A stretch of DNA of 53,985 bases from a virus (IMGVR_UViG_3300045996_001810:1-53985), one strand, 5' to 3'; positions 1-49,433 are shown, counted from the first letter of the stretch. The notes: generated from the sequence alone by a model not told the origin. Numbers and translations: made by a program.

Positions 1-126
1 ACGCGCTGCAGGCCGTGAACCTCTCCGCGGCCGCCGCGGTCGAGGTCGCGCTCGACGGACTCGAGGGCTGAGCCGTGTGGGTGATGACCACGCGCGGCTT
101 CTACAGCGCCGTCCAGCACCGCGACC
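1..126. repeat. Terminal direct repeat, identical to 53855-53980 (circular assembly overlap)
   Basis: Exact match of 1-126 to 53855-53980; last 5 nt of the window diverge; ORF at 75 restarts at 53929. Confidence 0.93.
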
Positions 127-533
127 GGCCGGGGCACGTCATGGTCCGGGCGCGGTGCCGCGCCGACCTCGATCGGCTCCTGGAGATCGTGCAGGTCGAC
201 CCGGCCCCGGAGATCGTCGCGACCCTCACGAACGCGGACTACCCCTACCGCGTGACGATGAGCGCGCCCGCGTGGGAGACCGCGCTCTACATGCTCGTGC
301 AGGAGATCACCTACCCGAACTTCAAGCACGCGGTCGCCCAGGAGCAGGGGGAGGCGCGGGAGCGGGTCTACATGCGGTGCTGGGGGGCGCTGCTAGCGAT
401 CGAGCAGGAGGACGGCGGGGTGGCCGCCGCGAAGGCGCTGCAGGCCGGCTACGCGGTCGACACAGGCTGGTGCGAGCACGAGGACTGGTGCATCCGCGCG
501 CCCGGCCACGACGGGGCCTGCGCCCCCTTCTAG
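75..533 (+). CDS. Phage hypothetical protein (MW..T.GFYS.V / VRAR / DYPYR / Y.NFK pattern)
   Basis: 152-aa ORF with GC3-rich codons; motif pattern recalled from phage hypotheticals. Confidence 0.75.
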   Translation: MWVMTTRGFYSAVQHRDRPGHVMVRARCRADLDRLLEIVQVDPAPEIVATLTNADYPYRVTMSAPAWETALYMLVQEITYPNFKHAVAQEQGEARERVYMRCWGALLAIEQEDGGVAAAKALQAGYAVDTGWCEHEDWCIRAPGHDGACAPF

Positions 534-756: not shown

Positions 757-3700
757 CTAGACGATCATCTCGACGTAAAGCACGGTCGCCCCGCCGGTCT
801 CCTGCCGGTCCAGCACGAGGAACTGGCTGCCGCGGGGCAGGATGACCTCGTTCTCGCCCGGGTGGCTCGAGCCGCCAGTGGTGTTCGCCCAGAGGCCCTT
901 CGCGCCGGCGGGCATCAGGATCTTGAGGTGCACCTGCCCCGACCAGGTGCCGCCGTTCACGCTCGAGCTCAGGAAGCCGTTGTCCTGGATGACCTGGCCC
1001 TTGTGCGCGTGCTGCTGCCAGCCCGCGAGCGTGGTCTTGCGGGAGAGCACGACGGGTTCGGGGATCGGGTCGGTCTTCGCGATCGCCGCGTCGAGGCGGG
1101 CGGCCTTCTGCGCGATGCTGACGCTGCCGACTCCCTCCGTCGACCGCAGCTGCGAGTTGATCTCGCTGTAGAGCCCGTTCGTGTAGCCGCTGACCGCGTC
1201 GCGCTCGGGGGCGGTGAGGCGCGCCTGGTTGTCGGCCTGCCACTTCTGGAAGGCGGCGCCGGCGGCGCTGTCGGTCTTGACGCCTGCGAACTGGGCGGGC
1301 GGCTCGTTGCCGCCGTACATGGCCGGGCCCTTGGGCTTCGCGGGCGCCTTCGCGGCGGCGCTGGGGGCGCTCGCGGCGGGCTTGAAGGCGTCGACGTGCG
1401 CCTGGCGCTCGTCGGCGGGCGGGACGTAGACCTTGCCGGGGGCGGCGCCCTGGGGGACCTCGACCTTGCCGCCGGCGGCGGTCCAGGCGGTGAGGTATCC
1501 GGTGTAAGCGTCGGTGTCGGGGTCGAGGACGGCGAGCTGCCCGTCGAGGGTCTCGAACGCGGCGCCCTTGGGCATCTCGGAGAACTTGAAGCCCTGGCTG
1601 GGCTGGAGCTTGGGGCCGATGGTCGCGGCGGTCGGCTTCTCGAGGCCGGGGGAGGGGGTCGCCGGGTCCTTGGCGGTGATGGGGGAGCCGTCCGCCTTCG
1701 TGACCTTCAGCGGCGCCTTGTAGCCGCCGTAGAGCTTCGTCTTCCCGTTCGACGCCTGCACCTTGACGTGCCCCAGCGGCGTGATCTCCTGCACGGTGTA
1801 GATCCAGCCGCCCTTCTTGTACTGGATCTTGTCCCCGGGCTGCAGGTCGAGGTCCTTGAGCTTCACCGCGTCGGTGTTCATCTGCCAGCCCTTGATGGGC
1901 TTCCCGGGCTTGGCGGCGGCGGCGATCTGATCCGCCACCGCATTCGCGACGTCGGGCGCCGGCGTGGCGGGAGCGGAGGGGACGCTCGAGGCGAACACGG
2001 GCTGCGAGGGCGCCGCGGGCACGGTCACGCCCGATGGCGTCTTGAGCAGCACGTCGCCGTTCCCGTTGACGCCCACTACTTCGAGCGGCGGGCCGTCGTC
2101 CGGCGCGATCTTGACCAGCGCGCCCGGCGCGTAGTCGCTCACCTTCGCGCCCGCCGGGGCGGCCATCAGCGGCGGCCCGTCCGCGGGCTTGGGCTTGGCG
2201 GCCGCGGCGGTCTGCTTGATCGCGGCGGCCGTGTCCTGGTCGCCCTTCGCGGCGTGGTACTCCGCGGCCTTGATCGCGAGCTGGACCTTCGCGAGGGCCT
2301 TCTCGAGGCCCTGCTTCGCCGCCGACGAGTTCGGCGCGGTCTTGTACGCCTTCTCGGTAAGCGCGCCCTGGATCGCCGCCTCGAGATCCTGCAGGCCCTC
2401 CTCGTCGGCCTGCAGGTCGTGCTTGACGACCTGGTAGTCGACGCCGCCCTTCTTCATCGTGTGCGTCGTCGTCGACTTGTACTTGATCGCCTTCTCGAGC
2501 TTGCGCGACGGCGCCGGCGAGGCCAGGTCGCCGGTGTACGTGCCGGCCACGGTCTCGACGACGCCGAGGGGGATGCCGCCGATCGCGACGATGAACCGGC
2601 CGCTCTCCGGATCCCGCGGGTGGTCCGCCGGGTTCCAGTCCTTCGCCAGCGCGAGGACCTGGTCCTCGGAGTCGAGGGCGACCGGGTCGCCGTCCGCGTC
2701 GAGCGTGACCTTGTGGACGGGCTGCGCGGTGTGCTGCACGATCGCGCGGATCTCTGACTCGCCGAGGCCGGCGTCTGAGAGCTCGACGATCTTCTGCAGC
2801 ACGTCGAGGCGCCGGGCGACGACCTCCCGCTGCCCCTGACCGGGGAGCGCGCCCACGACGGCGTTACGCTTCCCGAGGACGTCGCGGGCCTGGTCGAGGA
2901 TCTGCGGCCAGGACAGGTGCCCGAACACGGGGGCGCCCTGCGCGCTCTCGCGCAGGCTCCAGAGCTCCAGCGGCGCCTCAGACAGGCTGTGCTTCGGCTG
3001 CCCCTGCGCGCGGTAGCGGAGGCCGGCGCCGTTGTCGATCCGGACCGGCGTCCCGTCGTCGCGCACGAGAATGTTGTCCTGGGTGAGGCCGGCGACGTCC
3101 CAGTTGGCCAGGACCGCGTCGGCGACGAAGTGCTTGCCGATCCGGGCGACCGCCCGGACCTTCTCGTGCCCGCGCAGGTTCCCGAGCGGGGTCGCGGCGC
3201 CGACGTGCCGGGCGACCTTCACCGGCCCGTGCTCGGTCTTGTGGAGCTGGCTGTCGGGGACGGGGACGCCGAGCGCGCGGTAGGCGCGGTCGGTCGCGTC
3301 CTCCTCGAGCAGGTGCCCGACGTGCGTGCCCTTCTTCGTCACGTACAGGTTCCCGGCCGGGTCGGACCGCAGCTGCGCCCCGGTGGAGCCGCCGAGCTTG
3401 GCGACCTCCTTGAGCGTGTCGGGGTGCGGCGTCTTCGGCGCGAACTTCCCGGCCGGCGTGCGGGGGTGCTTGGCCTCGAACTCCGCGTCGAGATACCACG
3501 CCTCGAGGGCGGCCTGGTCCTCGAGGTTGGCGGGGGCCTCGTCGTTGAGCTCGTAGAAGAGCATGCACCGGCAGCGGTCCCAGCCGTAGCAGAACGGGTT
3601 GGGGACCGGGGCGAGGGCGGGGTCGTCGAGCTGACGGAGGACGTTGTCGTCGGCCTGGGCGCAGGCGGGGCACCGGTTCGCGTCCAGGATGGACGTGTAG

Positions 3701-5877
3701 CGGGCGCCGCGGATCTCGTCGGCGAAGTCCTCGGCGGCCATCGCCCGGCCCGCGTTGAGCGCGGAGCTGGCGTTGGCTGTACCCTCGGCCTTCGCGCGAC
3801 CCGTACCGGCTTGCTCGCCGGCGGCCCGGGCGGCCTCTGGCGGGGCCCCGTTCAGCCGCCGGCGCGCGACCGTCTGCCAGACGGCGGTGATGACGGCTTT
3901 GGCGGCGAGCCACCCGGCCTTCTTGACCGGGTCGGGCGCGCCGTCGTCGGCGAGCGCGAACACGGTCTCGGGCCAGATGGCGGCGAGCTCGCGGCGGCGC
4001 TGGCCGTGCAGCTCGCGCTCCACGGCGGCGCGGCCGGTCGCGTGCAGGTCGAGCAGGATGCTCGTGTAGGCGTCCGTGAGCCCCGTGGGCGGCTCCTGCG
4101 GCCCGTCGAGGACGATGGTGGGGGAGAGGGCCGCGTCGCTCGCGGCGGCGCTCACGTAGCTCGCAGCGGCCGCCTCGAAACGCACCCGCGCGCTGTCGAG
4201 CGCGGCCCGGATCGTGTCGACGTCGACGTAGAAGTCGTGCGCGGCCGGCTGCCGCGGCTGGGGGGCGTCGAGGGTGTGGGTGCCGCCGCACCGGCAGGCC
4301 TTGCCCTCCTCGGCGTCGTGGCCGCAGTCCTTGCACCGCTTCCCGAGGACGGGCGTGGTGATCTGCAGGTCGGTCGTGTCCTCGGCCAGGGTGCGGGCCT
4401 TGCGGGAGACCTTCTTCTTCTCCCGCTTGACCGTCTTCGAACCGTCCGCGCCGCGCTTCTCCGTGACCGCCTCGTGGACCTCCTCGCCGTCCTCGCCCAC
4501 GGCGGCCGGCTGCGCGGAGGCCTGAAGTTCGGCCTGGCGGGCCTCCTCCTCGGCGGCCTTGCGCTCCTCCCGCGCCTTCGGGTCGGCGGCGGGGAGCTTG
4601 CCGACCTGGCGCAGGTGATCCTCGAGCGGGTCGTCCGCGAAGATCGCGCCCGCCCCGACCAGCTCGGCGACGTAGGTCTTGAGCTGCTCCAGGTCGCTGT
4701 CGCCCAGCGTCATCCGGAGGGCGGGGCAGGGGACGTCCGGGCCGTAGTTGAGCGTGACGAGCCGGCGGACGATCATCTGCCCGACCTCGTTGGCGTAGAT
4801 CCCACCGAACGCGCCCAGGGCCGCGGTGAAGGGGTCGCTCTGGCTCTCCGCGGTGGAGAGGGCGCCCTTGCTGCCGGAGCCCTGCCCCAGGCGCATGAAG
4901 TCCTCGCTGAAGGCGGCGCGGATCGCGTCCCGGTGCCCGTTGATCGTCGTCCAGGCGTCCCGCTTGCCGCCGCCGCCCGCACCGCCGAGGCCCATGATCT
5001 CGAACCGCCAGCCCATCTCGGGGGCCTGGTCGGCGTGCGGGCCGGGCATGATCAGGTACGCGAGCTCGCCCGCGCGGAGCAGCGCGAGCTTGCCCTCGAG
5101 GTCGGCCATCGCGCCGGGGTCCTGCGCCCCGCCGGGCGGGGGGTAGACGACGGGGAGGCCGATCGCCTCGCGTTCCTGGCCGAGCGCGTCGAGCCGTTCG
5201 GTGCCGTCCTTCAGGCTCCAGGCCTTGTAGACGGGCCGCAGCATGGAGCGGCCTTCCCAGTTGTCGCCCTCGGCGTTGACGCGGTAGTAGAGGAGGTCCT
5301 GCCGGTCGAGGTCGACGTACGCGCCGCGGCTGGTGACGAACTGCTGCAGGCCGGTGAGGTCCCCGCCCGTGTCCCTGTACCACCGGTGGATGGTGCGGGG
5401 GAGCAGGACCATGAACTTGCGGGGGGTGAGCAGCTGCCGGCCGTCGTCGCGCTTCGCCGAGGTCCAGGTGACGTCGCAGGGGAGGAAGCCGGAGCGGGCG
5501 AGCATGTTCGCGGTCTCGGCGAGGTGCTGCCCCCAGGGGGTGCGATTCGGGGTGTTCTGGGCGTAGGTGCCCATGCCGAGCGCCCATTCGACGTCGTCGG
5601 CGACCTGGCGGGCCTCGTCGTCGGCTTCCTCGCCGCCGTACGGCTCCGCGCTCCAGGTGGCGCCGACGACGGGCGCGGTCCACATGCGGACGGCGCCGTA
5701 GACGTCGGCGTCGGTCCAGTACATCTCCTCGAACTTGTCGAGGCCGGCGCGGCCGATGAGGGCGTTGTTGAGCTCGTCGTGTTCGAGGAAGCCGTCCGTG
5801 TGGTGGCGGCCGGAGTCGGTGCGTGGCCTGTCGACCGCGGGGCGTCTGCGGAGGAGGCGGTCGAGGAGGTCGCCCAT
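757..5877 (-). CDS. Portal protein fused to MuF-like head morphogenesis domain, kinase-like domain, beta-rich repeats and C-terminal VIP2-like ADP-ribosyltransferase
   Basis: N-terminal Mu gp29/DUF935-like portal (NWEGRSMLRPVYKAW; LVTLNYG); MuF Cys motifs (LDANRCPAC...NPFCYGWDRCRC); kinase-like DAVLANWDV...DNIL...RIDNG; ART R-S-E motifs (LSRK, FLSSS, GENEVILPRG). Confidence 0.85.
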   Translation of the reverse strand: MGDLLDRLLRRRPAVDRPRTDSGRHHTDGFLEHDELNNALIGRAGLDKFEEMYWTDADVYGAVRMWTAPVVGATWSAEPYGGEEADDEARQVADDVEWALGMGTYAQNTPNRTPWGQHLAETANMLARSGFLPCDVTWTSAKRDDGRQLLTPRKFMVLLPRTIHRWYRDTGGDLTGLQQFVTSRGAYVDLDRQDLLYYRVNAEGDNWEGRSMLRPVYKAWSLKDGTERLDALGQEREAIGLPVVYPPPGGAQDPGAMADLEGKLALLRAGELAYLIMPGPHADQAPEMGWRFEIMGLGGAGGGGKRDAWTTINGHRDAIRAAFSEDFMRLGQGSGSKGALSTAESQSDPFTAALGAFGGIYANEVGQMIVRRLVTLNYGPDVPCPALRMTLGDSDLEQLKTYVAELVGAGAIFADDPLEDHLRQVGKLPAADPKAREERKAAEEEARQAELQASAQPAAVGEDGEEVHEAVTEKRGADGSKTVKREKKKVSRKARTLAEDTTDLQITTPVLGKRCKDCGHDAEEGKACRCGGTHTLDAPQPRQPAAHDFYVDVDTIRAALDSARVRFEAAAASYVSAAASDAALSPTIVLDGPQEPPTGLTDAYTSILLDLHATGRAAVERELHGQRRRELAAIWPETVFALADDGAPDPVKKAGWLAAKAVITAVWQTVARRRLNGAPPEAARAAGEQAGTGRAKAEGTANASSALNAGRAMAAEDFADEIRGARYTSILDANRCPACAQADDNVLRQLDDPALAPVPNPFCYGWDRCRCMLFYELNDEAPANLEDQAALEAWYLDAEFEAKHPRTPAGKFAPKTPHPDTLKEVAKLGGSTGAQLRSDPAGNLYVTKKGTHVGHLLEEDATDRAYRALGVPVPDSQLHKTEHGPVKVARHVGAATPLGNLRGHEKVRAVARIGKHFVADAVLANWDVAGLTQDNILVRDDGTPVRIDNGAGLRYRAQGQPKHSLSEAPLELWSLRESAQGAPVFGHLSWPQILDQARDVLGKRNAVVGALPGQGQREVVARRLDVLQKIVELSDAGLGESEIRAIVQHTAQPVHKVTLDADGDPVALDSEDQVLALAKDWNPADHPRDPESGRFIVAIGGIPLGVVETVAGTYTGDLASPAPSRKLEKAIKYKSTTTHTMKKGGVDYQVVKHDLQADEEGLQDLEAAIQGALTEKAYKTAPNSSAAKQGLEKALAKVQLAIKAAEYHAAKGDQDTAAAIKQTAAAAKPKPADGPPLMAAPAGAKVSDYAPGALVKIAPDDGPPLEVVGVNGNGDVLLKTPSGVTVPAAPSQPVFASSVPSAPATPAPDVANAVADQIAAAAKPGKPIKGWQMNTDAVKLKDLDLQPGDKIQYKKGGWIYTVQEITPLGHVKVQASNGKTKLYGGYKAPLKVTKADGSPITAKDPATPSPGLEKPTAATIGPKLQPSQGFKFSEMPKGAAFETLDGQLAVLDPDTDAYTGYLTAWTAAGGKVEVPQGAAPGKVYVPPADERQAHVDAFKPAASAPSAAAKAPAKPKGPAMYGGNEPPAQFAGVKTDSAAGAAFQKWQADNQARLTAPERDAVSGYTNGLYSEINSQLRSTEGVGSVSIAQKAARLDAAIAKTDPIPEPVVLSRKTTLAGWQQHAHKGQVIQDNGFLSSSVNGGTWSGQVHLKILMPAGAKGLWANTTGGSSHPGENEVILPRGSQFLVLDRQETGGATVLYVEMIV

Positions 5878-5907: not shown

Positions 5908-6411
5908 TCAGGAGGCCGGGCCCCAGACGAGCAGGACGCACCCGAACGGCGGCCGCTCGTTCGGCTTGACCTCCAGCGCGTCGGGCGCGATGAAGCGCGG
6001 CCGGCCCGCGAGAAACTCGGTCCGGAGGCGCCCGCCGCGATCGCGCCATGGCTCGACGTGACGCTGCCACCAGCCCTGCTCGGTGCGGTTGGCCGGCAGG
6101 AGCATTGCGATCAGCTCGGCCTCGGTCTCGCGATGTGCCTTGATGACCCAGGGCTCGATCGAGCTGTACGGGGGGTTGCACCAAACGCGCTCGCCGGCCC
6201 AGGACTGCGCGAGGCCGTCCTCGACGGGCCCGTAGAACCGCTTGCACTTCGCGTTGTGCGGGAGCGCGCAGACGTCGATCGTGAACCCGAAGCGGAGGTC
6301 GAGGGGGCCGAAGGTCTCGGGCGTGGTCGCACGGTCGTCGACCTCGGGCCGGGCGCCGCGCGCGGTGAGCTGCTGCGGGTGGTTCTGGGCGCGGAAGCGA
6401 GCGAGCGTCAT
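5908..6411 (-). CDS. Phage Dam-like DNA N6-adenine methyltransferase
   Basis: TPETF...FTIDVCA...DGLAQSW.GERVWCNPPYS signature. Confidence 0.88.
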   Translation of the reverse strand: MTLARFRAQNHPQQLTARGARPEVDDRATTPETFGPLDLRFGFTIDVCALPHNAKCKRFYGPVEDGLAQSWAGERVWCNPPYSSIEPWVIKAHRETEAELIAMLLPANRTEQGWWQRHVEPWRDRGGRLRTEFLAGRPRFIAPDALEVKPNERPPFGCVLLVWGPAS

Positions 6412-9245: not shown

Positions 9246-10970
9246 CTAGAACCGCCGGGCCCGGACCCCTCCGTGCACCGTGGACGGCACGGAGGGGCCC
9301 TCGGCGGCCGGCGCGTTCGCCCTGCCGAGGACCGGGATCGCCGGCAGCGCGAGCGCGGCGTACGCGAAGACGTCGACCTGGTCGTCGTGCGACCCGTTCG
9401 GGAACGCGAGCAGCTCCCGCTCGTACTTCGCGAGCCACGGCGCGGCGAGCGGGTGAAAGACCGTGTGCGCTTCGTAGCGGGGGACGGCGCCCATCGCCCT
9501 GGTGACCTTGTCCGTGTCGGCCTTCAAGGGCCGGATGGCGTGTCCGGCGCGGGTGAGGCCCTGCACGACGGCTTGGCCGGCGGCCTTCTCCTCGATGCGG
9601 ACGTCTGAGACCTGCCAGGCGGCTTTGGTGCGCAGGATGAACGCGCGGAGCTCGGGGTCCTCGAAGTGGTGGCGTTCGACGTCGAGGAGGACCAGGTCGC
9701 GGTCGGGGGTGACCGCCCAGTGCGCCATCACCGAGTAGTCGGCGGTCTCCTTCTCGCTCGTGGCCGTGTCGACCGTGGCGAACCGGTAGAGCCACGCCCA
9801 GCCGACCCTTTTGACGACGCCGGCGGCGTGGTCGTCGAGGAGGAGGACGTCGCCGCGGCCTTCCCCGTGCTCGTCGAGGCGGTAGTAGCGGAAGTCGGCG
9901 CGCTTGAAGATGCCGCCCTCGTCGGGGGTCGGGGTCTGCTGGAACTGGGCGCTGAAGCCGTAGCGGCCGATCGCGCGGCGTAGGAGCTCGAGCTGCGCGG
10001 TGGGGTACATCTGCGGCCAGAGCGCCTCCCCGGGCTGGCGGCCGAGCTCGTCGGGCATGCCGTAGCCGTCGTCCTCCCCCGCGATGCCGGGGAGGCAGAG
10101 GACGTCCCATTCCTCCCCGTCCACGCCCTCGCGCGTCTGGCCCTCGGGGAGCTTGCGGCCCTGCTCGTCACGGGATGGGTCGTTCGCGAGGAGCTGGCCG
10201 CTCAGGTCGAGCTCGTGCCAGCGGGTCTGCAGGACGATCGCGCCGGCGCCGGGCATCATGCGGGTTCGGGCGGTCTCGCGCCACCAGGTCGCGGTCTTCT
10301 CCTGCATCACCTCCGAGCGGGCTTCCTCGGCGTTCTTGACGGGGTCGTCGACGACGAGCAGGTGCGCGCCGTACCCGGTGATCGTGCCCCCGACACCGGT
10401 GGAGAGCATGCCGCCGCGGCGGCCGTCGATGTTCCAGTCGTCCGCCTTGCTCGACCTGGGGTCGATGTGCACCTGGAAGAGGGCGGGGCCGACCTCCTCG
10501 AGCACGTCCCGGGCCTTGCGGCCCCAGGTGCCGGCGAACGTGGTGCCGTAGCCGGCGAGGATCACGCGCAGGTCCGGGTTCGTGCCCAGGAACCAGGCCG
10601 GGGTGTAGCGCGAGATGAGCTCGCTCTTGCCGTGCCGCGGCGGCATGAAGACCATCAGGCGGGGGCCCTGCGCGTCCGGGGGCAGGATGCCCTGCGCGAT
10701 CGCGTGCTGGACGCGCTGGACCTCGGCGACCAGGCGCACGATCCGCTCGGCGATCAGGAGGAGGTGCGGGGCGGGGTGCCAGAGGGAGGCGGGGTTGGGC
10801 TCCTCCCCGAGCTGCCCCGAGTGGACGTACGCGAACCCGGCCGGCGTGCTCGCGGCCAGGCTACGGGCGAGGGTCTCGTTCTCCGGGGTCCAGAGCCGGG
10901 CGGCGGCGCTGCTCCTCAGCGGCCCGGAGGAACTCGTGCGCCTTGGCGGCGAGGGCGGGGTCGAGACCAT
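9246..10970 (-). CDS. terL: Terminase large subunit
   Basis: Walker A MPPRHGKS, Walker B LLVVDDP, RNase H-like VDTA...HDDQVD; start chosen from the promoter motif at 10976. Confidence 0.95.
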   Translation of the reverse strand: MVSTPPSPPRRTSSSGPLRSSAAARLWTPENETLARSLAASTPAGFAYVHSGQLGEEPNPASLWHPAPHLLLIAERIVRLVAEVQRVQHAIAQGILPPDAQGPRLMVFMPPRHGKSELISRYTPAWFLGTNPDLRVILAGYGTTFAGTWGRKARDVLEEVGPALFQVHIDPRSSKADDWNIDGRRGGMLSTGVGGTITGYGAHLLVVDDPVKNAEEARSEVMQEKTATWWRETARTRMMPGAGAIVLQTRWHELDLSGQLLANDPSRDEQGRKLPEGQTREGVDGEEWDVLCLPGIAGEDDGYGMPDELGRQPGEALWPQMYPTAQLELLRRAIGRYGFSAQFQQTPTPDEGGIFKRADFRYYRLDEHGEGRGDVLLLDDHAAGVVKRVGWAWLYRFATVDTATSEKETADYSVMAHWAVTPDRDLVLLDVERHHFEDPELRAFILRTKAAWQVSDVRIEEKAAGQAVVQGLTRAGHAIRPLKADTDKVTRAMGAVPRYEAHTVFHPLAAPWLAKYERELLAFPNGSHDDQVDVFAYAALALPAIPVLGRANAPAAEGPSVPSTVHGGVRARRF

Positions 10971-11526
10971 CACCGGCGACTATCTGCACCGGCGCCCCCG
11001 TTTCAGAACCCGAGAGCTCCACCTGCGCCCGCGGCCCGTACACCTGCGGGAGCCGGCGCTCGAGGAACCAGGCGGCGGCGCGCCAGTCTCCCTGCACCCG
11101 CTCCTCCCGGCGCTCCACCGTCGTGCGCGACTTCCCCCCCGGCATCGGCTCGGTCTTCGTCACGTCCCGGGTGCGGGTGTGCGGCCCCATCGCCGCCCTG
11201 ATCACCGCCAAAGCCTGCACCTCGGCGGCAGCCGTCGCGCGCGCGCAAGCCTCCATGAAGTCCACGTACGGCGCCTCACGCGGGAGCGGGTCTATGGCGG
11301 CGGTGAGCTGGGCGATGCGCTTCGCTGACTTGCCTTTGTAGGCGTCGCGGGCGGTTTCGGCGTCGGCGATGCGGGCTTTCTCGGCTTTGCCGCGTTCGAG
11401 CCAGAGGTAGAAGGTGCTCTCGCCGATGCCGGCGGCTTGGCAGGCTTCGCGGGCGTAGGCGCCGGCTTCGATGGCGGTGGTGATGCGTTGCGCGACGTTG
11501 GGGGTGAGTTTGGTCTGGCGGCCCAT
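10861..11526 (-). CDS. terS: Terminase small subunit
   Basis: N-terminal HTH (GRQTKLTP...ACQAAGIGESTFYLWL), DWRAAAWFLERR; directly upstream of terL. Confidence 0.8.
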   Translation of the reverse strand: MGRQTKLTPNVAQRITTAIEAGAYAREACQAAGIGESTFYLWLERGKAEKARIADAETARDAYKGKSAKRIAQLTAAIDPLPREAPYVDFMEACARATAAAEVQALAVIRAAMGPHTRTRDVTKTEPMPGGKSRTTVERREERVQGDWRAAAWFLERRLPQVYGPRAQVELSGSETGAPVQIVAGDGLDPALAAKAHEFLRAAEEQRRRPALDPGERDPRP

Positions 11527-14472: not shown

Positions 14473-15693
14473 TCAGGCCTCCTCTCGGGTTGCGGTGCCG
14501 CCGGTGAGTTGCTCCCAGCGGTTCACGATCACGTCGCAGTAGGCGGGGTCGATCTCCAGGCCGCGGCAGACGCTGCCGGTCTTCGTCGCGGCGAGCAGCG
14601 TGGAGCCGCTGCCGAGGAAGGGGTCGGCGACTACGCACCCGGCGGGGGCGTGGCGCTCGAGGAGGTCGACGAGGAGCGGGACGGGCTTCTGGGTCGGGTG
14701 CTGCCGGCCGCGCGCGTCCTCGCCGAACATGCCGAAGTGCAGGTGCCGGAGCAGGTCGCGCTTGTGCGGGACGCGGCTCCAGATGAGCTCGAAGCCGGAC
14801 CCGAAGCCGCGGTCGGCTGACTCGGTGAGGCGCTTGTCCCAGACGAGCCAGGAGCCGGCGCGGGGGTCGGGGTCGAGGCTGGGGCGGTAGTAGTCGGCGC
14901 CGAACCAGAGCTGCTCGCAGTCGCCGAAGTAGGCGACGTGGAAGGCGGCGTCGAAAGGCTGGTCGTCGCCGTGCACGGGCCGGTGGACGGCGCCCGGGGC
15001 GAGGGCCTGGCCGTTGCCCCAGCCGGACCGGTCGGTGTCGAGGTCCATGCCGTAGGGCGGGTCGGTGAGCACGATCCCGACGTCGACGCCGGCGAACGCC
15101 CGGTCGAGCTGCAGCACGTCCGAGGAGTCGCCGCAGACGACCAGGTGCTCCCCGAGGCGGATCAGGTCCCCGGGCCGGGTGACGGGGTCGTCGGGGATCT
15201 CGGCGGCGGCGTCCGCGGCGCCGGGGTCTCCCCCGTCCCCCAGGGCGTCGCCGGCGTTGGTGCCCTCGATCAGGGCGGCGAGGTGGTCCTGGCTGAACCC
15301 GAGCGTGTCCAGGGCGGCGCCGGCCTCGGCGGCGGCGTTGAGGAACACGGTCAGCGCCTCGTTCTCCCACTCGCCGAACGGCTGGTTGTCGCGGACTGCC
15401 CACTCGTACGCCTGGGCGTCGGTGAGGCTGACGGTGAAGGTGGGGATGGTCTCCCAGGCGAGGTCGTCGCGGGCGACGGTCACGCGCTGGTTGCCGGCGA
15501 TGATGTAGCCGGTCTCCTCGTGCAGGATGACCGGGCGGGCCCAGAGCATGCCGGGGTCGCGGGAGAGCGCGCGCTGGAGCTGCTCGCGCTGCGCCTGGGT
15601 GATGAAGCGCGGGTTCGCGGGGTGCGGGGTGAGCTCGCCGATCGGCCGGAGCTCGGGCACGATCCGCGACGCGGCGAAGTCCGGGGTGCTCAT
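14473..15693 (-). CDS. ParB-like domain fused to DNA N6/N4 methyltransferase
   Basis: LTPHPANPR...IIAGNQR...DN (ParB); TDPPYG, HPTQKP, DPFLGSGSTL (MTase). Confidence 0.9.
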   Translation of the reverse strand: MSTPDFAASRIVPELRPIGELTPHPANPRFITQAQREQLQRALSRDPGMLWARPVILHEETGYIIAGNQRVTVARDDLAWETIPTFTVSLTDAQAYEWAVRDNQPFGEWENEALTVFLNAAAEAGAALDTLGFSQDHLAALIEGTNAGDALGDGGDPGAADAAAEIPDDPVTRPGDLIRLGEHLVVCGDSSDVLQLDRAFAGVDVGIVLTDPPYGMDLDTDRSGWGNGQALAPGAVHRPVHGDDQPFDAAFHVAYFGDCEQLWFGADYYRPSLDPDPRAGSWLVWDKRLTESADRGFGSGFELIWSRVPHKRDLLRHLHFGMFGEDARGRQHPTQKPVPLLVDLLERHAPAGCVVADPFLGSGSTLLAATKTGSVCRGLEIDPAYCDVIVNRWEQLTGGTATREEA

Positions 15694-15784
15694 CGGTCCA
15701 CCCAGGGGACGCCCATCATGTCGAGCGCGTTCGCGCCGCCCTCGCCGACCTGCCGGCGAAGCTGCGCGTGGAAGTCGGGGTCGA

Positions 15785-15901
15785 TCATGCCGCAATCCAG
15801 ACCGTCGCGAGGATCAGGCACCCGTAGAAGGCGACGTCGTCGCGGTCCCGCAGGTGGTAGGCCGCGGCGCAGAGCCAGAAGATGGCGAGGATGGTCTCCA
15901 T
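15785..15901 (-). CDS. Tiny hydrophobic protein
   Basis: 38 aa METILAIFWL..., coupled overlaps. Confidence 0.4.
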   Translation of the reverse strand: METILAIFWLCAAAYHLRDRDDVAFYGCLILATVWIAA

Positions 15902-24755: not shown

Positions 24756-27700
24756 TTAGCGGCGGCCGTTGGCGGCGGCGATCAGCGCCCGCGTGCGCTG
24801 CCCCGTCCGCTGGCTCACGACGTCGACCGGGCGGCCGTCCACCGTCGCCGACGCCCGGCCGTCCCGGTCCACGATCACCGTGACCTGCGGGGCCGCCACG
24901 CTCACCGGCGCGGGCCGGGCCTGGCCGGTCCCGTACGGGCCGTTCGGGTCCGGGGTGATGGTCTCCCCCGGGTGCACGACGGCGAGCTGCGTGTTGCCGA
25001 CGACCCGGCCGCCGTGCGCGAACGTGCCCAGCGACCGCTGTCCGAGGATGCCGGCGAAGCTCGAGAGCGCCCCGAACTGCTGGCCGGCGAGCCGCTCCCC
25101 CGCGATCGTCTGCGCGCCGATCTCGGCCAGGATCCGGTCGCGTTCCTCGCCCATCGCGATCGCGGGGTCCTGCCCGCGGGCGTCCTGGAGGTCCCCGAGA
25201 ATGTCGAGCCGTTCCATGCCGACCAGCTGCCCGCGCGCCCCGGCGAGGATCTGGCCGCTCAGGGTCTCCATGAGCGGCAGGACCTCGCCCTGGCCGCGCA
25301 GCCCGGCCCGGACCTCCGCGGCCCACCGGGCGAGCTCGCCCTCCCAGAAGCGGTGCGCGTAGGACTCGCCGCTGGAGTCAGTCAGGGGCGCCGGGCCGGC
25401 GGTCAGGCCGGGGGCGCCCTTGAGCGGCACGCCGCCGAGGTTGACGACGTTCTTCGCGGGGACCAGCGACCCGCGCGGCCGCTTCGCGCGCGCCTTCGCG
25501 GCGGCCTCCGCAGCCCGGGAGCGGTTACGGTTCTGGCGGCGGTTGAACCTGACCCGGGCCGGGAGCCCGGCGGCGGCCCGGCCGACGCGGCCGCCCCGCG
25601 CGTACCCCTGCCCGTTGGCGTCGACGATGTGCCCGTACCGGGCGATCATGTAGTTGATCGCGGCGACGAGGTTCGCGAGCGGATGCCGCTGACTGTTGGG
25701 CAGGCTCGGGTCCCGGTAGGCCTGGAAGGTGGAGCCGATGACCTGCGCGAGGCCGATGGACGGGTCGCCGTTGGCGGCGTTGACGTCCCAGTTGTTGACG
25801 GCGTTGGGGTCGCCGCCGGACTCCTGCATCACCCGCCGGAAGAGCGCGGCGGCATTCCCGGGCGTGTAGTGGCCGGTCATGCGGAGCGCCTGCTCGATCA
25901 GCGAGCGCAGGGCGGCGTCGCCCATCGCGGCGCCGCCCATCTGGCCGCCCCCGCCGCCGGCGCTCATGTTCGTGAACGCCTTGGCCAGGCTCGCGTTCGC
26001 CCCCGCGGCGACCGCGGCGACCGCGGCCTGCCCGGCCGCGCCCACGGCGCCGCCGGGCCCCGTCCACTTGGGGGCGGCGATCTGCTCGAGCGCGGCCATC
26101 GCCCCGCCGCCGCCGGCGCCGAGGTCAACGTGGAGGTGGTCGAAGTGGTCCGGCACCCGCCAGAGCGTGTGCCAGCCCTTCGCGCGGAGCATGGCGTTGA
26201 GGCGGTCCAGGGCGGCGGGCTCCCCGCCGGGGAACGTGTCGGCGTTGACGTCCAAGGCGCCGGCCTTGTAGTGCCAGCCGCCGGGGGCGTGCCCGCCGGT
26301 GACGCCGCCGAACGCGGGGTGCTCGCCGACCGCGTACCCCATGCTCTGAATCCACTTGCCGAGACCGACGATGCCGCCGCCCTGCATGCCCTTGCCGTGC
26401 CCGCCGCCGACCCAGTGCGGCTTGTTGACGCGCTGGAAGAGCCCGTCGAGGTCGGTCCCGAACGTGGTGGCCAGGGCGGCGTTGATCACGTCCTGCTGCG
26501 GGCCGTTGACGATCGCCTCGCCGAGCCCGACCCGGATGAGCTGGGTGTCCTGCCCGGCCTGCCCGGGCTTGCCGATGAACCCGCCGCCGGCCTTGCCCTG
26601 CACGTTGTTGCTCGCGACGTTGTCCGAGTCGGCGTTACGCTTCCCGGTGAGGGTGTCCCGCCCGTCGATGTAGCGGCTAGCCTGCTCCCCGGTGATCCCG
26701 TACATCGCGAGGTTCTTGCGCATCAGCCGCTCGATCTCGCGCATCCCCTCCTTCGTGGAGAGCGTGCCCTCGCGCATCGAACGCTTCACGTTGATGATCG
26801 CCGCGTCGAAGTTCTTGGACAGCGCGCTCTTGCCCTCCGAGCTGGAGGCGTCCATCTCCGTCTTGATCGCGCGCATGCTCAGCCGCACGTTCGTGCGCAG
26901 CTGCTCGACACTGTTGCTGACGCCCTTGCGCATCCGGTCGATCGTGCCGGCGACCTTGAGCGCCCCCTCCGTCGTGACCTTCGTGTCGATCTCGACGGCG
27001 ACGTCCTGCATCGCGAGCTTCTGCAGCGCCTCGACGCGCTCGATCACCCGGGGGAGGTCCTGGGTCGCCGCCTGCCGGGCGTCGTCGGAGAGGTCGTCGA
27101 ACGCCTTGTCGATCGGGACGTAGGCGCCCTTGAAGCCCTCGCCGGTGTCGCGGACCTGGTCGCCGAGCGCCTTCAGGCCGGTGACGTCACGGCGGCGGAC
27201 GAGCCGGTCGAGTTGCTCGTTGTACTTCTCCAGCGCCTTGCTCTCCCGGCCCTCCTCGAGGGCGCGGACGCCGCTGTAGGCGGCGACCCCGGCCGCCCCG
27301 GCGGCCATCCCCCACGGGCCGCCGAGCACGCCCAGGCCGGCGCCGATCGCGCCGCGGGCGCCCGCCTTGGCCACCGCCCCGCCGACCGCCCCCCCGGCAG
27401 CACCGCCCGCGCCGGGGGTCCAGACCATCGCGCCGCCCTTCCCGCGCGTCCACGAGCCCGCCGCCGCCCCCGCCGCCGCGCCCAGCACGCTTCCGGCCCC
27501 GGCCGCGGCGCCCACCCCGCCCGCGACCGTGCCCGCGGTCTTCAGCCGCTTGATCAGCGTGTCGACGCCGCTGATCGCCGCGCCGATCCCCAGGATCTTG
27601 TAGAGGGTCATCCCCGCCAGACCCACGCTCAGGGCCTCCTTGAGGCCCGGGCCGCCTATGTCGATGAGCCAGGTGATCCCGTCGACGACGTCCCCGATCA

Positions 27701-29108
27701 GCTCGACGGCCAGGGCGAGGCCGCCGCCGTCCTCGGAGAGCTCCGCGAAGAGCTCCACCACGCTCACGAGCGTGTCGATCAGCGCCGGGCCCAGGGTGGT
27801 CGCGAGGTTGTCGAGCGCCTCCTCCAGGGCCGGGACGAGCTCCTCACGGATCTGCCGGATCAGCTCCGGACTGTTCTCGTTCCCGCCGAGCCTCGCCCAC
27901 GCCTCCGCGAGGTCCCCGATCAGGCCGGCGACCTCCTCCGTCGCTTCCTTCGCGTGGTCGAAGTAGTCGGCCATCTCGTTCTGGCCCTCGACCGACCCGG
28001 TCCACTCCTCCCAGCGGCCGGTGACGTCCTCGAGGGACTGCATGAGATCGCGGCCGGACTCGTAGCCGGCGCCGCCGATGTTGACCAGCGTGCCGATCAG
28101 GTTCCCGCCAATGTCGTGGAGGTCCTGCAGCACCCAGCGGGTCTCGCGGAAGAACGCGGCGGTCTCCCCGCTCTTCTCGCCCGCCTGCGCCCACGCCTCG
28201 ACGTTCTCTGAGCCGGCCTTCGCGGCCTGGGTGAGCCAGGACACGAACGGGTCGGCGGCCACCAGGACGTCCCCGAGCGCGTCGACCAGGTTGAGCGCGG
28301 CGTCGCCGAGGTCCTCGAGCACCTCCGCGTTACGGTTCCCGATGACCTCCATCTCGCGGCCGAACTCGCGGCCGCCGACCATCCGGCCCGCCTGCTCGGC
28401 CACGTACCCCATCGCGTCCCCGGTGCGCTCCAGCACGCCCTCGAGCACGTCGAGGTTGCGCAGGGCCGCGTCCCCGCCCGCCTGCACGCCCGGGAACAGG
28501 CCGCGCGCGGACGCGGCCGTCAGGCCCTCCGCGACCCCCCGGTTCTGGCCGATCCACTTCACGAAGTCGCGCTGCTCCGCGGAGAGCTCGCGCATCGCCT
28601 GCCGCGCCTTCTTCGCGCTCTCCTCGGTCCCGTCGAGCGCGTCGGTCTGCGCCTTCAGGGCGTCCCCGACGCCGCGCGAGGCGACCAGGACGGTGCCGAG
28701 GCCCTGCCCGAGCGCGGTGTAGCTCTGCGCGACCCCGACCACGGCGCCCGCGGCCGGCGCGGAAGCGGCGATGATCGCGGTCAGGCCGGCGGCGACGTCG
28801 AAGAGCGCGTCCGCGGCCAGGCCGGCGCCGGCGCCGAGCGCCGGGAACTTGATCAGCCCGATCGCGTTACGGGTGAAGGTGAACTTCTGATTGACCCGGT
28901 TAAGGGTCGTGTCCAGGCCGCGCAGCCGGACGTCGAGGGCGTCGACGTCGCGCGCGTTCGCGCGCGTGGTCGCCCCGTACTTCTGCTGGCTCTTGTCCGC
29001 CGTGGCGGCGGCCTTGTCGACCGCCTGGATGGAGGCGATCGCCTGGCCGGCGGCGGCGCCGAGGTCCTTCGCGTCGCCGGTGATCTCGACGTGGATGCGG
29101 TCGGCCAT
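24756..29108 (-). CDS. Tape measure protein with M15-like peptidase motifs and lytic transglycosylase (SLT) domain
   Basis: 1450 aa, Ala/Gly-rich helical; WHYKAGALD...HFDHLHV; QESGGDPNAVNNWDVNA..GDPSIGLAQ. Confidence 0.92.
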   Translation of the reverse strand: MADRIHVEITGDAKDLGAAAGQAIASIQAVDKAAATADKSQQKYGATTRANARDVDALDVRLRGLDTTLNRVNQKFTFTRNAIGLIKFPALGAGAGLAADALFDVAAGLTAIIAASAPAAGAVVGVAQSYTALGQGLGTVLVASRGVGDALKAQTDALDGTEESAKKARQAMRELSAEQRDFVKWIGQNRGVAEGLTAASARGLFPGVQAGGDAALRNLDVLEGVLERTGDAMGYVAEQAGRMVGGREFGREMEVIGNRNAEVLEDLGDAALNLVDALGDVLVAADPFVSWLTQAAKAGSENVEAWAQAGEKSGETAAFFRETRWVLQDLHDIGGNLIGTLVNIGGAGYESGRDLMQSLEDVTGRWEEWTGSVEGQNEMADYFDHAKEATEEVAGLIGDLAEAWARLGGNENSPELIRQIREELVPALEEALDNLATTLGPALIDTLVSVVELFAELSEDGGGLALAVELIGDVVDGITWLIDIGGPGLKEALSVGLAGMTLYKILGIGAAISGVDTLIKRLKTAGTVAGGVGAAAGAGSVLGAAAGAAAGSWTRGKGGAMVWTPGAGGAAGGAVGGAVAKAGARGAIGAGLGVLGGPWGMAAGAAGVAAYSGVRALEEGRESKALEKYNEQLDRLVRRRDVTGLKALGDQVRDTGEGFKGAYVPIDKAFDDLSDDARQAATQDLPRVIERVEALQKLAMQDVAVEIDTKVTTEGALKVAGTIDRMRKGVSNSVEQLRTNVRLSMRAIKTEMDASSSEGKSALSKNFDAAIINVKRSMREGTLSTKEGMREIERLMRKNLAMYGITGEQASRYIDGRDTLTGKRNADSDNVASNNVQGKAGGGFIGKPGQAGQDTQLIRVGLGEAIVNGPQQDVINAALATTFGTDLDGLFQRVNKPHWVGGGHGKGMQGGGIVGLGKWIQSMGYAVGEHPAFGGVTGGHAPGGWHYKAGALDVNADTFPGGEPAALDRLNAMLRAKGWHTLWRVPDHFDHLHVDLGAGGGGAMAALEQIAAPKWTGPGGAVGAAGQAAVAAVAAGANASLAKAFTNMSAGGGGGQMGGAAMGDAALRSLIEQALRMTGHYTPGNAAALFRRVMQESGGDPNAVNNWDVNAANGDPSIGLAQVIGSTFQAYRDPSLPNSQRHPLANLVAAINYMIARYGHIVDANGQGYARGGRVGRAAAGLPARVRFNRRQNRNRSRAAEAAAKARAKRPRGSLVPAKNVVNLGGVPLKGAPGLTAGPAPLTDSSGESYAHRFWEGELARWAAEVRAGLRGQGEVLPLMETLSGQILAGARGQLVGMERLDILGDLQDARGQDPAIAMGEERDRILAEIGAQTIAGERLAGQQFGALSSFAGILGQRSLGTFAHGGRVVGNTQLAVVHPGETITPDPNGPYGTGQARPAPVSVAAPQVTVIVDRDGRASATVDGRPVDVVSQRTGQRTRALIAAANGRR

Positions 29109-35715: not shown

Positions 35716-37149
35716 TCACGCCGCCACCTGCTCGGCCTGCTCGGCGAGACCCTCCAGAAGGAACCGGGCGCGGGGCAGGCCTGCGGCGAACCGGTAAGCG
35801 TCCTTGTCGCCGAGGAAGTCCTCGGGCTTCTCCCCGCCGTCTGAGTAGTGCTCCGCGTACGCCTTGGCGTCCGTGGCGAACAGGAGCCGCTGGCGCAGCT
35901 CGGAGCGGGCGGCGACGACGCCGGGGTGATCCTTCGCGAAGTACGGGGCCGCCTCGAGCACGGCGAGCGCGTTGACCTGCTCGTCGTGGGCGACGAGGAC
36001 CTGCGCGAGCTCGATCACCCGCTGCGCCGCGAGGGCGCGCTTGCGCTGCGGCCGCCACGTCGCGAGCGCGTTCGCGACCCGGTCATCGTGCGCCAGGGCG
36101 AGCGCCTCCTCCCCGACCTGGATCGCCTCGTCGAGCCGGCCCTGCTCCCCCAGCGCGCCGGAGAGCACGAGGCGGGGGAGGAACGTGTAGTCGAGCGGGT
36201 TGACGATCAGGAGCGTGTCCGGCGCGCCGAGCTCGAGCACCCGGCGGCACCACGTTTCGGCGTGCTCCCACTCCCCGCGGCGGTAGTGCCCCTCCGCGAG
36301 CGTGAGGTAGCTGTCTGGCCACTCCGGATGGACCTTGAGCGCCTGCAGGGCGAGGTCGATCGCTTCGTCGACCCGGCCCTGGTCGAACAGGCACCCGGCC
36401 ATCTTGCGGTGCACCTGCGCGCGCTCCTCAGGCCAGCCGGTCTCCACGGCCAGGTACTTCGCGAACCAGTCCAGCGCCTCGTCGTGCTCGCCCACCGCCG
36501 CGTGCTCGGTCCCGAGGTAGGAGAGCACGCGCGGGTTGTCGGGCTCCTCGGCGACCCAGGCGGTCAGGATCCGCCGGTTGCGCTCGGAGCTGCTCAGTCC
36601 GTGCTGCGGCGGCGGCTCGTGGCGCCACTCGATCACGTCAGGGCCGACCCATTCGATCCGGCCGGCGATGACCTGCGCCTCGTGCACGCGGTTGGCCCAG
36701 TGGGTGACGCCGGCGCGGACGATCCGTTCGCGCTTGAGGTAGCAGACGCACTGGCCGGTCTCGTCGCGGGCGTAGTCGTAGCCGGCGCCGTAGGCGTGCA
36801 GGTCGAGGGGGGCCTGGGCGACGAGCGCCCGGAGGTTCTGCGCGCCGATGATCCGGTCGTCGGCGTCGACCCAGACGCGCCAGTCGGTCGTGAGCTGGTT
36901 GTCTGCCGCGTTGCGGGCGGCGGCGAAGTCGTCGACCCAGTCGAACTCGCCGATCACGAGCTCGGTGAGCACGCCGGCGGCGCGCTGCTCGGTCGCGAAC
37001 CGGCGGACGACGTCCAGGGTGCCGTCCGTCGATCCGGTGTCCACGATCGCGACCTGGTCGACGTGCTCCCAGAAGCTCGCGAGACACCGTTCGATGATCG
37101 CCGCTTCGTCGCGGACGATCATCGCGACCCCAACGGTCGGGCGCCTCAC
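35716..37149 (-). CDS. GT2 glycosyltransferase with TPR repeats
   Basis: AMIVRDE, VDTGSTDGT, DDFAAARN, WVDADD, RVHE, then TPR-like helices; GTG start overlaps upstream stop. Confidence 0.9.
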   Translation of the reverse strand: MRRPTVGVAMIVRDEAAIIERCLASFWEHVDQVAIVDTGSTDGTLDVVRRFATEQRAAGVLTELVIGEFDWVDDFAAARNAADNQLTTDWRVWVDADDRIIGAQNLRALVAQAPLDLHAYGAGYDYARDETGQCVCYLKRERIVRAGVTHWANRVHEAQVIAGRIEWVGPDVIEWRHEPPPQHGLSSSERNRRILTAWVAEEPDNPRVLSYLGTEHAAVGEHDEALDWFAKYLAVETGWPEERAQVHRKMAGCLFDQGRVDEAIDLALQALKVHPEWPDSYLTLAEGHYRRGEWEHAETWCRRVLELGAPDTLLIVNPLDYTFLPRLVLSGALGEQGRLDEAIQVGEEALALAHDDRVANALATWRPQRKRALAAQRVIELAQVLVAHDEQVNALAVLEAAPYFAKDHPGVVAARSELRQRLLFATDAKAYAEHYSDGGEKPEDFLGDKDAYRFAAGLPRARFLLEGLAEQAEQVAA

Positions 37150-37355
37150 CCGGAGGTCCTCGGCCAGAAGGACCCGGAGGAGGCGCCCACCGCTCGGGCG
37201 ATCCGCTCTTGCGAGCTCGGTCCGGGACGATACCCGGACTCGCACATGGAAACGAGGGAGACCGCGCAGCCGGCCGCCTGGGCGACGTCGACGAGGCGCA
37301 TGTTCTGCGCCTTCCTTGCGGCCTTGAGGGGGTGCAGGGGGGCGGTGGGTGTCAC
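37146..37355 (-). CDS. XRE-family HTH protein
   Basis: LKAARKAQNMRLVDVAQAAGCAVSLVSMCESG. Confidence 0.82.
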   Translation of the reverse strand: MTPTAPLHPLKAARKAQNMRLVDVAQAAGCAVSLVSMCESGYRPGPSSQERIARAVGASSGSFWPRTSG

Positions 37356-49317: not shown

Positions 49318-49433
49318 CCAGGAAACTCTCAACCGGTCAGGGCGTCCGCGCGATGGACGCCAGTAGACCCACCGCCCCGAGGGCGCGGGCCGCCGAGGAG
49401 GCGGCCCGCGCGCTCCGTCACGGAGGAGGAACC

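Follow-up and report, generated by a model that had tools for sequence, protein, structure and literature searches.

The window analysed here is a virus record of IMG/VR (IMGVR_UViG_3300045996_001810), a stretch of 53,985 bases that is classed as linear and rated 63% complete by CheckV. At its left end lies, on the minus strand, an open reading frame (ORF) of 1706 codons that starts with an ATG at 5877, ends with a TAG at 757 and keeps one frame throughout. Its product (P0001) joins a Mu-type portal domain, a MuF-like region, an atypical protein-kinase-like domain and a predicted ADP-ribosyltransferase (ART) in one polypeptide. The parts are listed below, with amino acid (aa) positions in P0001 and, in brackets, what each assignment is drawn from; pLDDT is the predicted local distance difference test of the AlphaFold2 (AF2) models.

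757–5877, minus: whole ORF, 1706 aa, in the order portal, linker, MuF, kinase-like domain, spacer modules, ART (single frame and full-length homologues)
4483–5877, minus: Mu-type portal domain, aa 1–465 (PF06074 match at aa 47–420, that is 4618–5739)
4231–4482, minus: charged linker, aa 466–549, with a cysteine cluster C515xxC518...C528xC530 at 4288–4335 (motif positions, family alignment)
3511–4230, minus: MuF-like region, aa 550–789, with a core at aa ~689–773 (3559–3813) that holds C736xxC739 and C769-R-C771 (jackhmmer, hhalign)
3442–3468, minus: HPRTPAGKF motif before the kinase-like domain, aa 804–812 (motif position)
2680–3510, minus: atypical protein-kinase-like domain, aa 790–1066, confident fold at aa ~815–1052 (AF2 model, fold comparison, conservation)
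2593–2622, minus: HPRDPESGRF motif after the kinase-like domain, aa 1086–1095 (kept in the relatives P0002–P0004)
2245–2622, minus: alpha/beta module, family unassigned, aa ~1086–1211, pLDDT 60–80 (model; fold searches without a clear match)
1675–1887, minus: small beta module, aa ~1331–1401, pLDDT 70–80, SH3/Tudor-like at best (model)
1390–1632, minus: second small beta module, aa ~1416–1496, pLDDT 85–89 (model; unlike the first in sequence, z = -0.51)
799–1227, minus: C3/VIP2-type ADP-ribosyltransferase, aa 1551–1693 (PF03496, PHROG 3895, matches to PDB sequences)

The fusion gene and its portal, MuF and ART parts

DNA of high GC content yields many long spurious frames, and the record has a GC content of about 73% throughout, with other overlapping frames of 1283 aa and 1089 aa; the reality of the 1706-aa frame was therefore examined first. 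The GC content at third codon positions (GC3) is 0.97 over the whole ORF and that at second positions (GC2) is 0.49. In each 50-codon window GC3 lies between 0.86 and 1.00, above the values of the first (GC1) and second positions, and therefore the frame never shifts, domain boundaries included. When 5.8 billion proteins were searched by a word index, five relatives of P0001 emerged, three of which are full-length proteins from other contigs with 44–51% identity (P0002, 1688 aa; P0003, 1558 aa; P0004, 1754 aa), each encoded by one ORF, with the same order of parts and with Pfam matches to portal and ART at the two ends as in P0001. The other two are shorter (P0005, 1028 aa; P0006, 989 aa). All six proteins are collinear in the alignment up to '...FYELNDEAPA(N/Y)L' (P0001 aa ~785) and diverge beyond it. 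Because of the three independent homologues and the uniform frame signal, an assembly chimera or a missed frameshift is very unlikely. The ORF at 757–5877 is a real gene, and the uninterrupted frame of 1706 aa described in an earlier note, made from the sequence alone, is confirmed except for its 'repeats' (see below). For the architecture alone, that is portal, MuF, kinase-like domain and ART in one protein, our confidence is very high.

Public reads were also searched, as the earlier note had proposed. Two soil runs contain shares of 0.18 and 0.08 of the sampled words, and exact read contigs from two soil studies cover 3483–3690 (208 nt), 3538–3997 (460 nt) and a few other places. The check thus returned exact contigs inside the ORF and none across the portal–MuF junction; the read 'joints' listed have sides of about 20 letters and resemble chance GC-rich matches. 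The read data neither support nor question the fusion at this junction. A nucleotide search of isolate phages with the first 20 kb of the record gave no match, and the phage collection holds no record covering 80% or more of P0001.

The portal part is recognised by Portal_Mu (PF06074) with 89.1 bits (cut-off 23.9; E 4.5e-25; profile positions 2–332 of 336) and by the portal family PHROG 113 (E 2.5e-35), and Portal_Mu matches all six members of the family. A six-frame search of the record gave this one Portal_Mu match, at 4618–5739, and none to the portal families PF04860 and PF05133. The fusion gene is therefore the only portal gene seen in the record, and its product is a polyvalent virion protein. 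In the linker, only C515 and C518 are invariant in the six family members. In P0006 a 2H phosphoesterase (PF13563/PF02834) is inserted here, and in P0005 it sits after MuF.

MuF homology is accepted at the profile level, although the Pfam threshold is not reached. The six-frame search with MuF gave one match in the record (3574–3807, E 1.3e-5), which lies inside the fusion ORF. A jackhmmer search of 153 proteins, seeded from the Pfam-recognised MuF domain of another protein (P0010), reached P0001 at aa 646–808 (E 5.8e-6) along with 70 of the 147 unrelated proteins. Moreover, hhalign comparison of the six-sequence family alignment with 59 MuF domains gave Prob 95.7% and E 9.2e-9 over 80 columns (aa ~689–773), with the CxxC and CRC motifs aligned. 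In the phage collection the MuF part matched only one record (MW202444, E 7e-5).

The C-terminal domain is a predicted enzyme. ADPrib_exo_Tox (PF03496) reaches 59.3 bits when the full-length protein is searched and 66.9 bits with the segment alone (cut-off 23.4), and matches among PDB sequences include C3stau2 (1.4e-8), Lmo0066 (1.6e-7) and VIP2 (1.9e-6), as well as C3bot, CdtA and Certhrax; there is also a match to PHROG 802, 'Alt-like', at aa 1544–1615 (E 2.7e-6). R1613 (1039–1041), S1637–S1639 (961–969) and E1675-N-E1677 (847–855) fall at the aligned catalytic positions of C3stau2, Lmo0066 and VIP2 and are kept in P0002–P0004. In this family, transfer is directed to arginine where the motif is ExE and to asparagine where it is QxE, and the domain is predicted to be an arginine-type (ExE), C3/VIP2-like ART. 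The portal segment, the CxxC/CxC linker, the MuF-like domain (albeit below the Pfam cut-off) and the R-S-E ART that the earlier note had placed along the ORF are all borne out by these matches.

The kinase-like domain and its partners

The segment at aa 790–1066 has no Pfam match even at E ≤ 10, and its best match among PDB sequences reaches only E 0.27. Its AlphaFold2 model, built from a 24-sequence alignment, is confident (pLDDT 88.6; predicted template modelling score, pTM, 0.86), with a helical C-lobe kept. Foldseek gave at least 500 matches in the PDB at E ≤ 0.001, those listed being kinases, with the bacterial kinase complex 7vkb, CtkA, HipT, actin-fragmin kinase and RioK1 at the top. 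In an exhaustive VIA comparison the Z scores were 13.1 for CtkA (root-mean-square deviation 3.7, 200 aligned), 12.7 for CotH, 12.3 for PI4KIIalpha (17% identity), 11.7 for both RioK1 and HipA, 11.4 for actin-fragmin kinase and 10.6 for MavQ. The matches among the viral models of BFVD are headed by a 'Phage portal protein, HK97' of 1201 aa (E 5.4e-21, TMq 0.77, 37% identity); next come proteins of Gordonia phages, then proteins called 'ADP ribosyltransferase' and two with a PI3K/PI4K catalytic domain in their names. The neighbours in the ESM Atlas are viral hypothetical clusters, one of which has PF00454 in 16% of its members.

PF00454 (PI3_PI4_kinase) itself has no match in P0001 and matches one of the 147 best representatives described below (E 8.4e-4), and the HipA families PF07804 and PF20613 have no match in P0001. 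Judged from sequence and model, the domain looks like a remote relative of PI3_PI4_kinase, not a member. The PI3K/HipA-like kinase of the earlier note is therefore right at the level of the modelled fold (CtkA, PI4KIIalpha and HipA being among the closest structures), and the fold-modelling check that it had suggested for this segment gave a confident kinase fold with two lobes; the domain is a member of neither Pfam family. Motifs of the domain are LGGSTGA (828–834), NWD (925–927), D934-N935 and IDNG (947–950), which together lie at 3028–3393 of the window. K848, E859, D920, D927 (in NWDV), D934-N935 and D948 (in IDNG) are invariant in the 24 sequences, and the same holds in 44 further sequences; in the LGGSTGA loop, L39, G41, T43 and G44 (numbered with aa 828 as 39) are invariant and G40, S42 and A45 nearly so. 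The candidate catalytic residues are the G-loop at 828–834, K848, E859, D927, D934, N935 and D948.

The family is large. An HMMER search of 1.84 billion representatives (at 50% identity) found 3645 proteins at E ≤ 1e-3, 1695 at E ≤ 1e-10 and 410 at E ≤ 1e-30, and the position of the domain varies within proteins of 206–3416 aa. The partners of the domain were scanned with Pfam in the best 147 of the 3645 representatives, with the P0001 family excluded (batches of 44, 51 and 52); the families counted may overlap within one protein. Phage_Mu_F is found in 61 of the 147 and Phage_min_cap2 in 4, ADPrib_exo_Tox in 32, the ART family PF01129 in 13, NUDIX in 24 and a 2H phosphoesterase in 3. A portal family of any of three kinds is present in 11 (Portal_Mu 5, Phage_portal 5, Phage_portal_2 1). 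A phmmer search with the ART of P0001 found a homologous ART in 18 of the 147, mostly just after the kinase-like domain. According to these counts, the kinase-like domain is a habitual MuF cargo that is often paired with an ART or NUDIX domain and is joined to three portal families.

Two giant polyvalent proteins carry the domain in several copies. P0007 (3416 aa) has five kinase-like copies and an ART, and its copies sum to matches with HipA_C (E 1.7e-18) and HipA_2 (E 6.5e-12), although none of the stretches passes by itself. P0008 (3130 aa) has three kinase-like copies with NUDIX, a tyrosine phosphatase and an SH2 domain.

Among isolate genomes, 19 of 50,697 records match the kinase-like domain, and the proteins are labelled 'hypothetical protein' or, after the neighbouring domain, 'ADP-ribosyltransferase'. 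A description of the family as a MuF or portal cargo was not found in the literature, cargo tables in supplements being outside the search. The Ct_MAD domain of Jamet et al. was considered as a name for it and set aside, the text of that paper (PMC5576092), as far as it was available, offering no testable feature.

A motif of the form HPR-x(3-4)-G-[KR]-F stands on both sides of the kinase-like domain. Two other proteins (P0024 and P0046) have an NCGTGxGGF motif in the alignment columns of HPRTPAGKF, each of the two motifs being present in 7 of 153 proteins. The HPR-type flanking motif may mark the limits of the domain, serve in docking or be a place where the protein is cleaved.

Between the kinase-like domain and the ART, the spacer (aa 1067–1530) has no Pfam match even at E ≤ 10, its model, built from 4 sequences, is weak (pLDDT 59.6), and Foldseek gave nothing at E ≤ 0.001 (best E at least 2.5e-3). 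For the beta module at aa ~1331–1401, VIA gave the translocation-signal domain of TraI (Z 6.3), then EF-P and Tudor (Z ~5), which is below a meaningful level. The earlier note had seen three beta-rich repeats in this region (aa ~1240–1496). Pairwise local alignment of the three stretches gave z = 0.49, -0.72 and -0.51, and of 500 shuffles 148, 403 and 362 scored at least as high, so that the stretches have no mutual similarity and the repeats are ruled out; a confident beta module is modelled for only two of them.

Genomic setting and related loci

Other features of the window are the following.

75–533, plus: 152-aa ORF that converges on the 3' end of the fusion gene; GC3 0.98 (without a Pfam or PHROG match)
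5908–6411, minus: Dam-type methylase, between terminase and portal
9246–10973, minus: large terminase TerL, upstream of the fusion gene (PHROG 38, E 7.7e-101)
14473–15795, minus: ParB-like/DNA methyltransferase fusion
24756–29108, minus: 1450-aa tape measure, with tail genes
35716–37245, minus: glycosyltransferase-like gene among structural genes
46447–47400, minus: major capsid protein
47419–47859, minus: scaffold
47859–48827, minus: Mu-like I head protease, candidate tail-freeing enzyme (PF10123, 107.4 bits; PHROG 328)
49314–49967, plus: winged-helix Trans_reg_C protein (E 9.8e-17), in the gap between portal fusion and head protease

The phage is siphovirus-like, comes from soil and has a high GC content and a head module of the Mu type. 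TerL comes first in 18 related loci, before portal::MuF, an I protease that lies 0.02–4.5 kb downstream, scaffold and major capsid protein, whereas in the present record the portal fusion lies at the left end and the protease, scaffold and major capsid protein at the right end. This splitting of the head module by the record ends suggests that the genome is circularly permuted, although no terminal repeat of 20–399 bases is present, and such a genome may be almost fully covered here, the 63% estimate notwithstanding. Relatives are found in metagenome-assembled genomes (MAGs) of Solirubrobacterales and Capillimicrobium, one of them on a 484-kb contig, which points to Thermoleophilia hosts; some of these relatives are probably prophages. 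No integrase or resolvase was matched in the record, at its rated completeness. The ParB-like/methyltransferase fusion, the Dam-type methylase and the glycosyltransferase-like gene have possible anti-restriction or surface-modification functions, and the position of the ORF at 75–533 would suit a candidate antidote or immunity protein for the ART/kinase cargo.

Portal and MuF share one frame in 14 of the 18 related loci (L007/L017 and L012/L013 look like duplicates). Two loci have separate genes for portal (607 aa in L005, 595 aa in L006) and MuF (299 and 316 aa), about 130–220 bases apart; MuF directly follows the portal there as the next gene and in P0001 within the same ORF. These two loci (L005, 7986–10836; L006, 7995–10953) have the portals closest to that of P0001 among the IMG/VR loci (48–50% identity), and the portal–MuF fusion is therefore evolutionarily labile. 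The remaining two are without a call, L011 being cut by a contig end and L014 having no MuF match.

None of the 18 loci carries the kinase/ART cargo. Pfam searches of ten of their ORFs found a zeta toxin in one, LPD1 in six (all below cut-off) and nothing after MuF in three. The zeta-toxin case (L004:171–3584) is a single frame of 1138 aa in which portal and MuF are joined to a zeta-toxin kinase (PF06414, 92 bits). Within the P0001 family, the cargo is kinase plus ART in four proteins and a 2H phosphoesterase in two. As read from these domain matches, the portal–MuF scaffold exchanges its cargo in the way by which MuF polymorphic toxins, and polyvalent proteins too, are defined.

Proposed loading, release and delivery of the cargo

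The portal has a fixed copy number of twelve per virion, and its C-terminus (the crown) faces the interior of the head. Because of this orientation, each prohead would take in twelve MuF–kinase–ART tails along with its portal, and the tails would need no targeting signal of their own. The one portal match and the one MuF match of the record both lie in the fusion ORF, so all portal subunits would come from this gene, which favours about twelve copies entering each prohead. A cargo that is covalently joined to the portal cannot leave the head, and the tail must therefore be cut off first. The Mu-type I protease would sever the tails from the portal as the head matures. A precedent is reported for the Mu portal gp29, whose last 124 residues are absent from the virion structure, an absence attributed to protease I in the accessible text of PMC11915804. 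This precedent, with the same portal and protease families present here, favours release by the I protease. The freed MuF–kinase–ART pieces would exit with the DNA and, much like T4 Alt, would act at the very start of infection, phosphorylating and ADP-ribosylating host targets for takeover or counter-defence. We consider this model as a whole, in which a portal-borne polyvalent protein is loaded, cleaved and ejected, to be reasonably probable. The interpretation in the earlier note, which had about 12 copies loaded through the portal, is supported in part: the single portal gene favours its number for the copies that enter the prohead, but the cleavage step was missing from its account.

Several points weigh against this reading. 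All steps beyond the making of twelve tails as part of the portal are inferred. With the record incomplete by its rating, a second portal gene outside it is possible. SPP1 gp7, the best-studied MuF protein, is present at 1–2 copies per capsid, not 12, as stated in the part of PMC5576092 consulted. The read contigs are short and of low depth, with none spanning the portal–MuF junction. For the MuF part, PF04233 stays short of its cut-off of 29.6 bits, with 15.1 bits for the full-length protein and 18.5 bits (E 0.0035) for the segment alone, and matches weakly in only one of the six family members; the jackhmmer search likewise passed only P0001 of the six and missed P0002–P0006. The putative equivalence of the candidate residues to kinase catalytic residues is read from motif order and conservation. 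Finally, no immunity gene was recognised in the record, nor an integrase.

An alternative is that the tail stays attached to the portal, where twelve MuF domains would form an inner structural or DNA-handling body, or that it acts only in the producing cell. The fusion is the usual state in this lineage, being present in 14 of the 18 loci, and as several of these have little or no recognisable cargo, it has value without effectors; moreover, SPP1 gp7 binds portal and DNA (PMC5576092, in the text available), and no cleavage site was identified in the fusion protein. However, the cargo after MuF is swapped between kinase plus ART, 2H, zeta toxin and LPD1, which is the pattern of delivered effectors and not of a structural part, Pseudomonas phage Dolphis gp117 has the kinase-like and ART pair but no portal, and the C-terminus of the Mu portal is reported to be removed by protease I (PMC11915804, same portion). 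We regard an attached tail as unlikely.

The protein could instead be a MuF polymorphic toxin as described by Jamet et al. (2017), with which a temperate phage arrests non-lysogens while lysogens are guarded by an immunity protein. This would suit the succession of MuF and variable C-terminal toxin domains, the share of ARTs in the survey of these authors (14% of MuF toxins, by the text of PMC5576092 at hand), the relatives in bacterial MAG contigs, one of 484 kb and some probably prophages, and the convergent ORF at 75–533 (plus strand) that adjoins the 3' end of the gene. Against it, the record is without an integrase or resolvase match, and this ORF has no family and no homologue in the 18 loci, which says little as those loci lack kinase/ART cargo. 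Such a toxin is quite unlikely here.

It is very unlikely that most portal subunits are tail-less, an internal start, early cleavage or premature termination giving a plain portal and few MuF-effector copies. The separate portal and MuF genes of L005 and L006 and the 1–2 copies of SPP1 gp7 (PMC5576092, as above) would agree with it, but the 1706 codons contain no stop or change of frame, codon bias is uniform across the junction and the fusion is kept in 14 related loci. Finally, it is hardly credible that the long ORF is an artefact, be it a chimeric assembly, a missed frameshift or a chance frame in DNA of 73% GC: long spurious ORFs are common in such DNA (here the overlapping frames of 1283 and 1089 aa) and read support is thin, but GC3 stays at 0.86–1.00 throughout, four Pfam- or fold-verified domains share the frame, the part order is identical in three independent homologues and the exact contigs of 208 nt and 460 nt come from two soil studies.

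Several components of the proposed portal-borne delivery are known already, namely portal–MuF fusions, MuF–ART fusions and polyvalent proteins that combine portal or MuF with effectors. In Microbacterium phages (EA3, EA5, EA8; cluster EB), portal and MuF-like minor capsid protein form one gene, described by Jacobs-Sera et al. (2020) in the consulted text of PMC7302621 without effector domains, whereas P0001 has 920 further residues with the kinase-like domain and the ART. Percival gene 4 (Microbacterium; cluster EJ phages) and the EFV toxin (Enterococcus faecalis prophage) are MuF–VIP2 ART fusions and predicted virion components (PMC7302621, PMC5576092, both as far as available). They resemble P0001 in having MuF followed by a C3/VIP2-type ART, with variable C-terminal cargo, but their MuF is a separate gene beside the portal, and 'kinase' occurs 0 times in the text of PMC5576092, supplementary domain tables aside. 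Iyer et al. (2017) described MuF and portal domains that are joined to PBECR and 2H domains and argued for packaging and injection (PMC5512222). A 2022 survey of viral NAD/ADP-ribose systems adds fusions of MuF and portal with Nudix, fusions of MuF with Alt/VIP2 ARTs, and head/portal proteins that carry ARTs (PMC9503650), in the portions of both papers that could be seen. With its kinase-like domain and ART, P0001 fits these polyvalent proteins, in which several effector domains share one polypeptide in the context of virion genes. The injected effectors of the earlier note are therefore not a new idea, packaging and injection of MuF- and portal-fused effectors having been proposed in 2017 and 2022 (same texts of PMC5512222, PMC5576092 and PMC9503650).

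The kinase clade of Iyer et al. is without the whole C-terminal subdomain and is found mainly in Verrucomicrobia-Chlamydia and Bacteroidetes, whereas the kinase-like domain of P0001 keeps a helical C-lobe and has other motifs; the two are set apart by that description (PMC5512222, in part). The combination of portal, MuF, kinase-like domain and ART was not found in PMC5512222 or PMC9503650 as far as their texts were available, supplements being outside the scope.

Dolphis gp117 (1222 aa, labelled 'ADP-ribosyltransferase'; relatives Touem01 and Jeremy) has the same kinase-like domain (41% identity over 125 aa) followed by the same type of ART (30% over 149 aa); Pfam finds neither portal nor MuF in it, and it lies away from an annotated portal gene in the stretch shown. 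Phage Mu shares with the present record the portal family PF06074, the protease family PF10123 and a MuF after the portal, but its portal and F are separate genes without kinase or ART, and it is a transposing myovirus, whereas the record here has a 1450-aa tape measure. In phage T4, some tens of copies of Alt are directed to the core of the prohead as a protein of its own that is not part of the portal. The likeness to it is that of a head-carried ART injected with the DNA, which modifies host RNA polymerase (PMC9503650, PMC5512222, in the parts consulted).

What is new is the four-part combination, together with the size and the partner pattern of the unnamed kinase-like family. With two predicted enzymes covalently tied to a virion component fixed at twelve, the protein lends itself to the question of how a phage head doses, releases and ejects its internal cargo. 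Phage proteins that enter the cell together with the DNA are at work before phage genes are expressed, which makes them candidates for first-line counter-defence and host takeover. Tentatively, and as a possibility that we would not call probable, the portal may be a loading device whose twelve tails are cut by the I protease and co-injected, and the kinase-like family a large virion-delivered class acting with NAD/ADP-ribose and nucleotide chemistry against host immunity. The habitual partners of the kinase-like domain are ART, NUDIX and 2H phosphoesterase domains on MuF or portal scaffolds. If the domain acts with NAD/ADP-ribose chemistry, it would phosphorylate, for example, a nucleotide signal or an ADP-ribosylated target and would not be an ordinary protein kinase. 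The domain is very common and is named neither by Pfam nor by phage annotation, and naming its substrate would annotate thousands of phage proteins.

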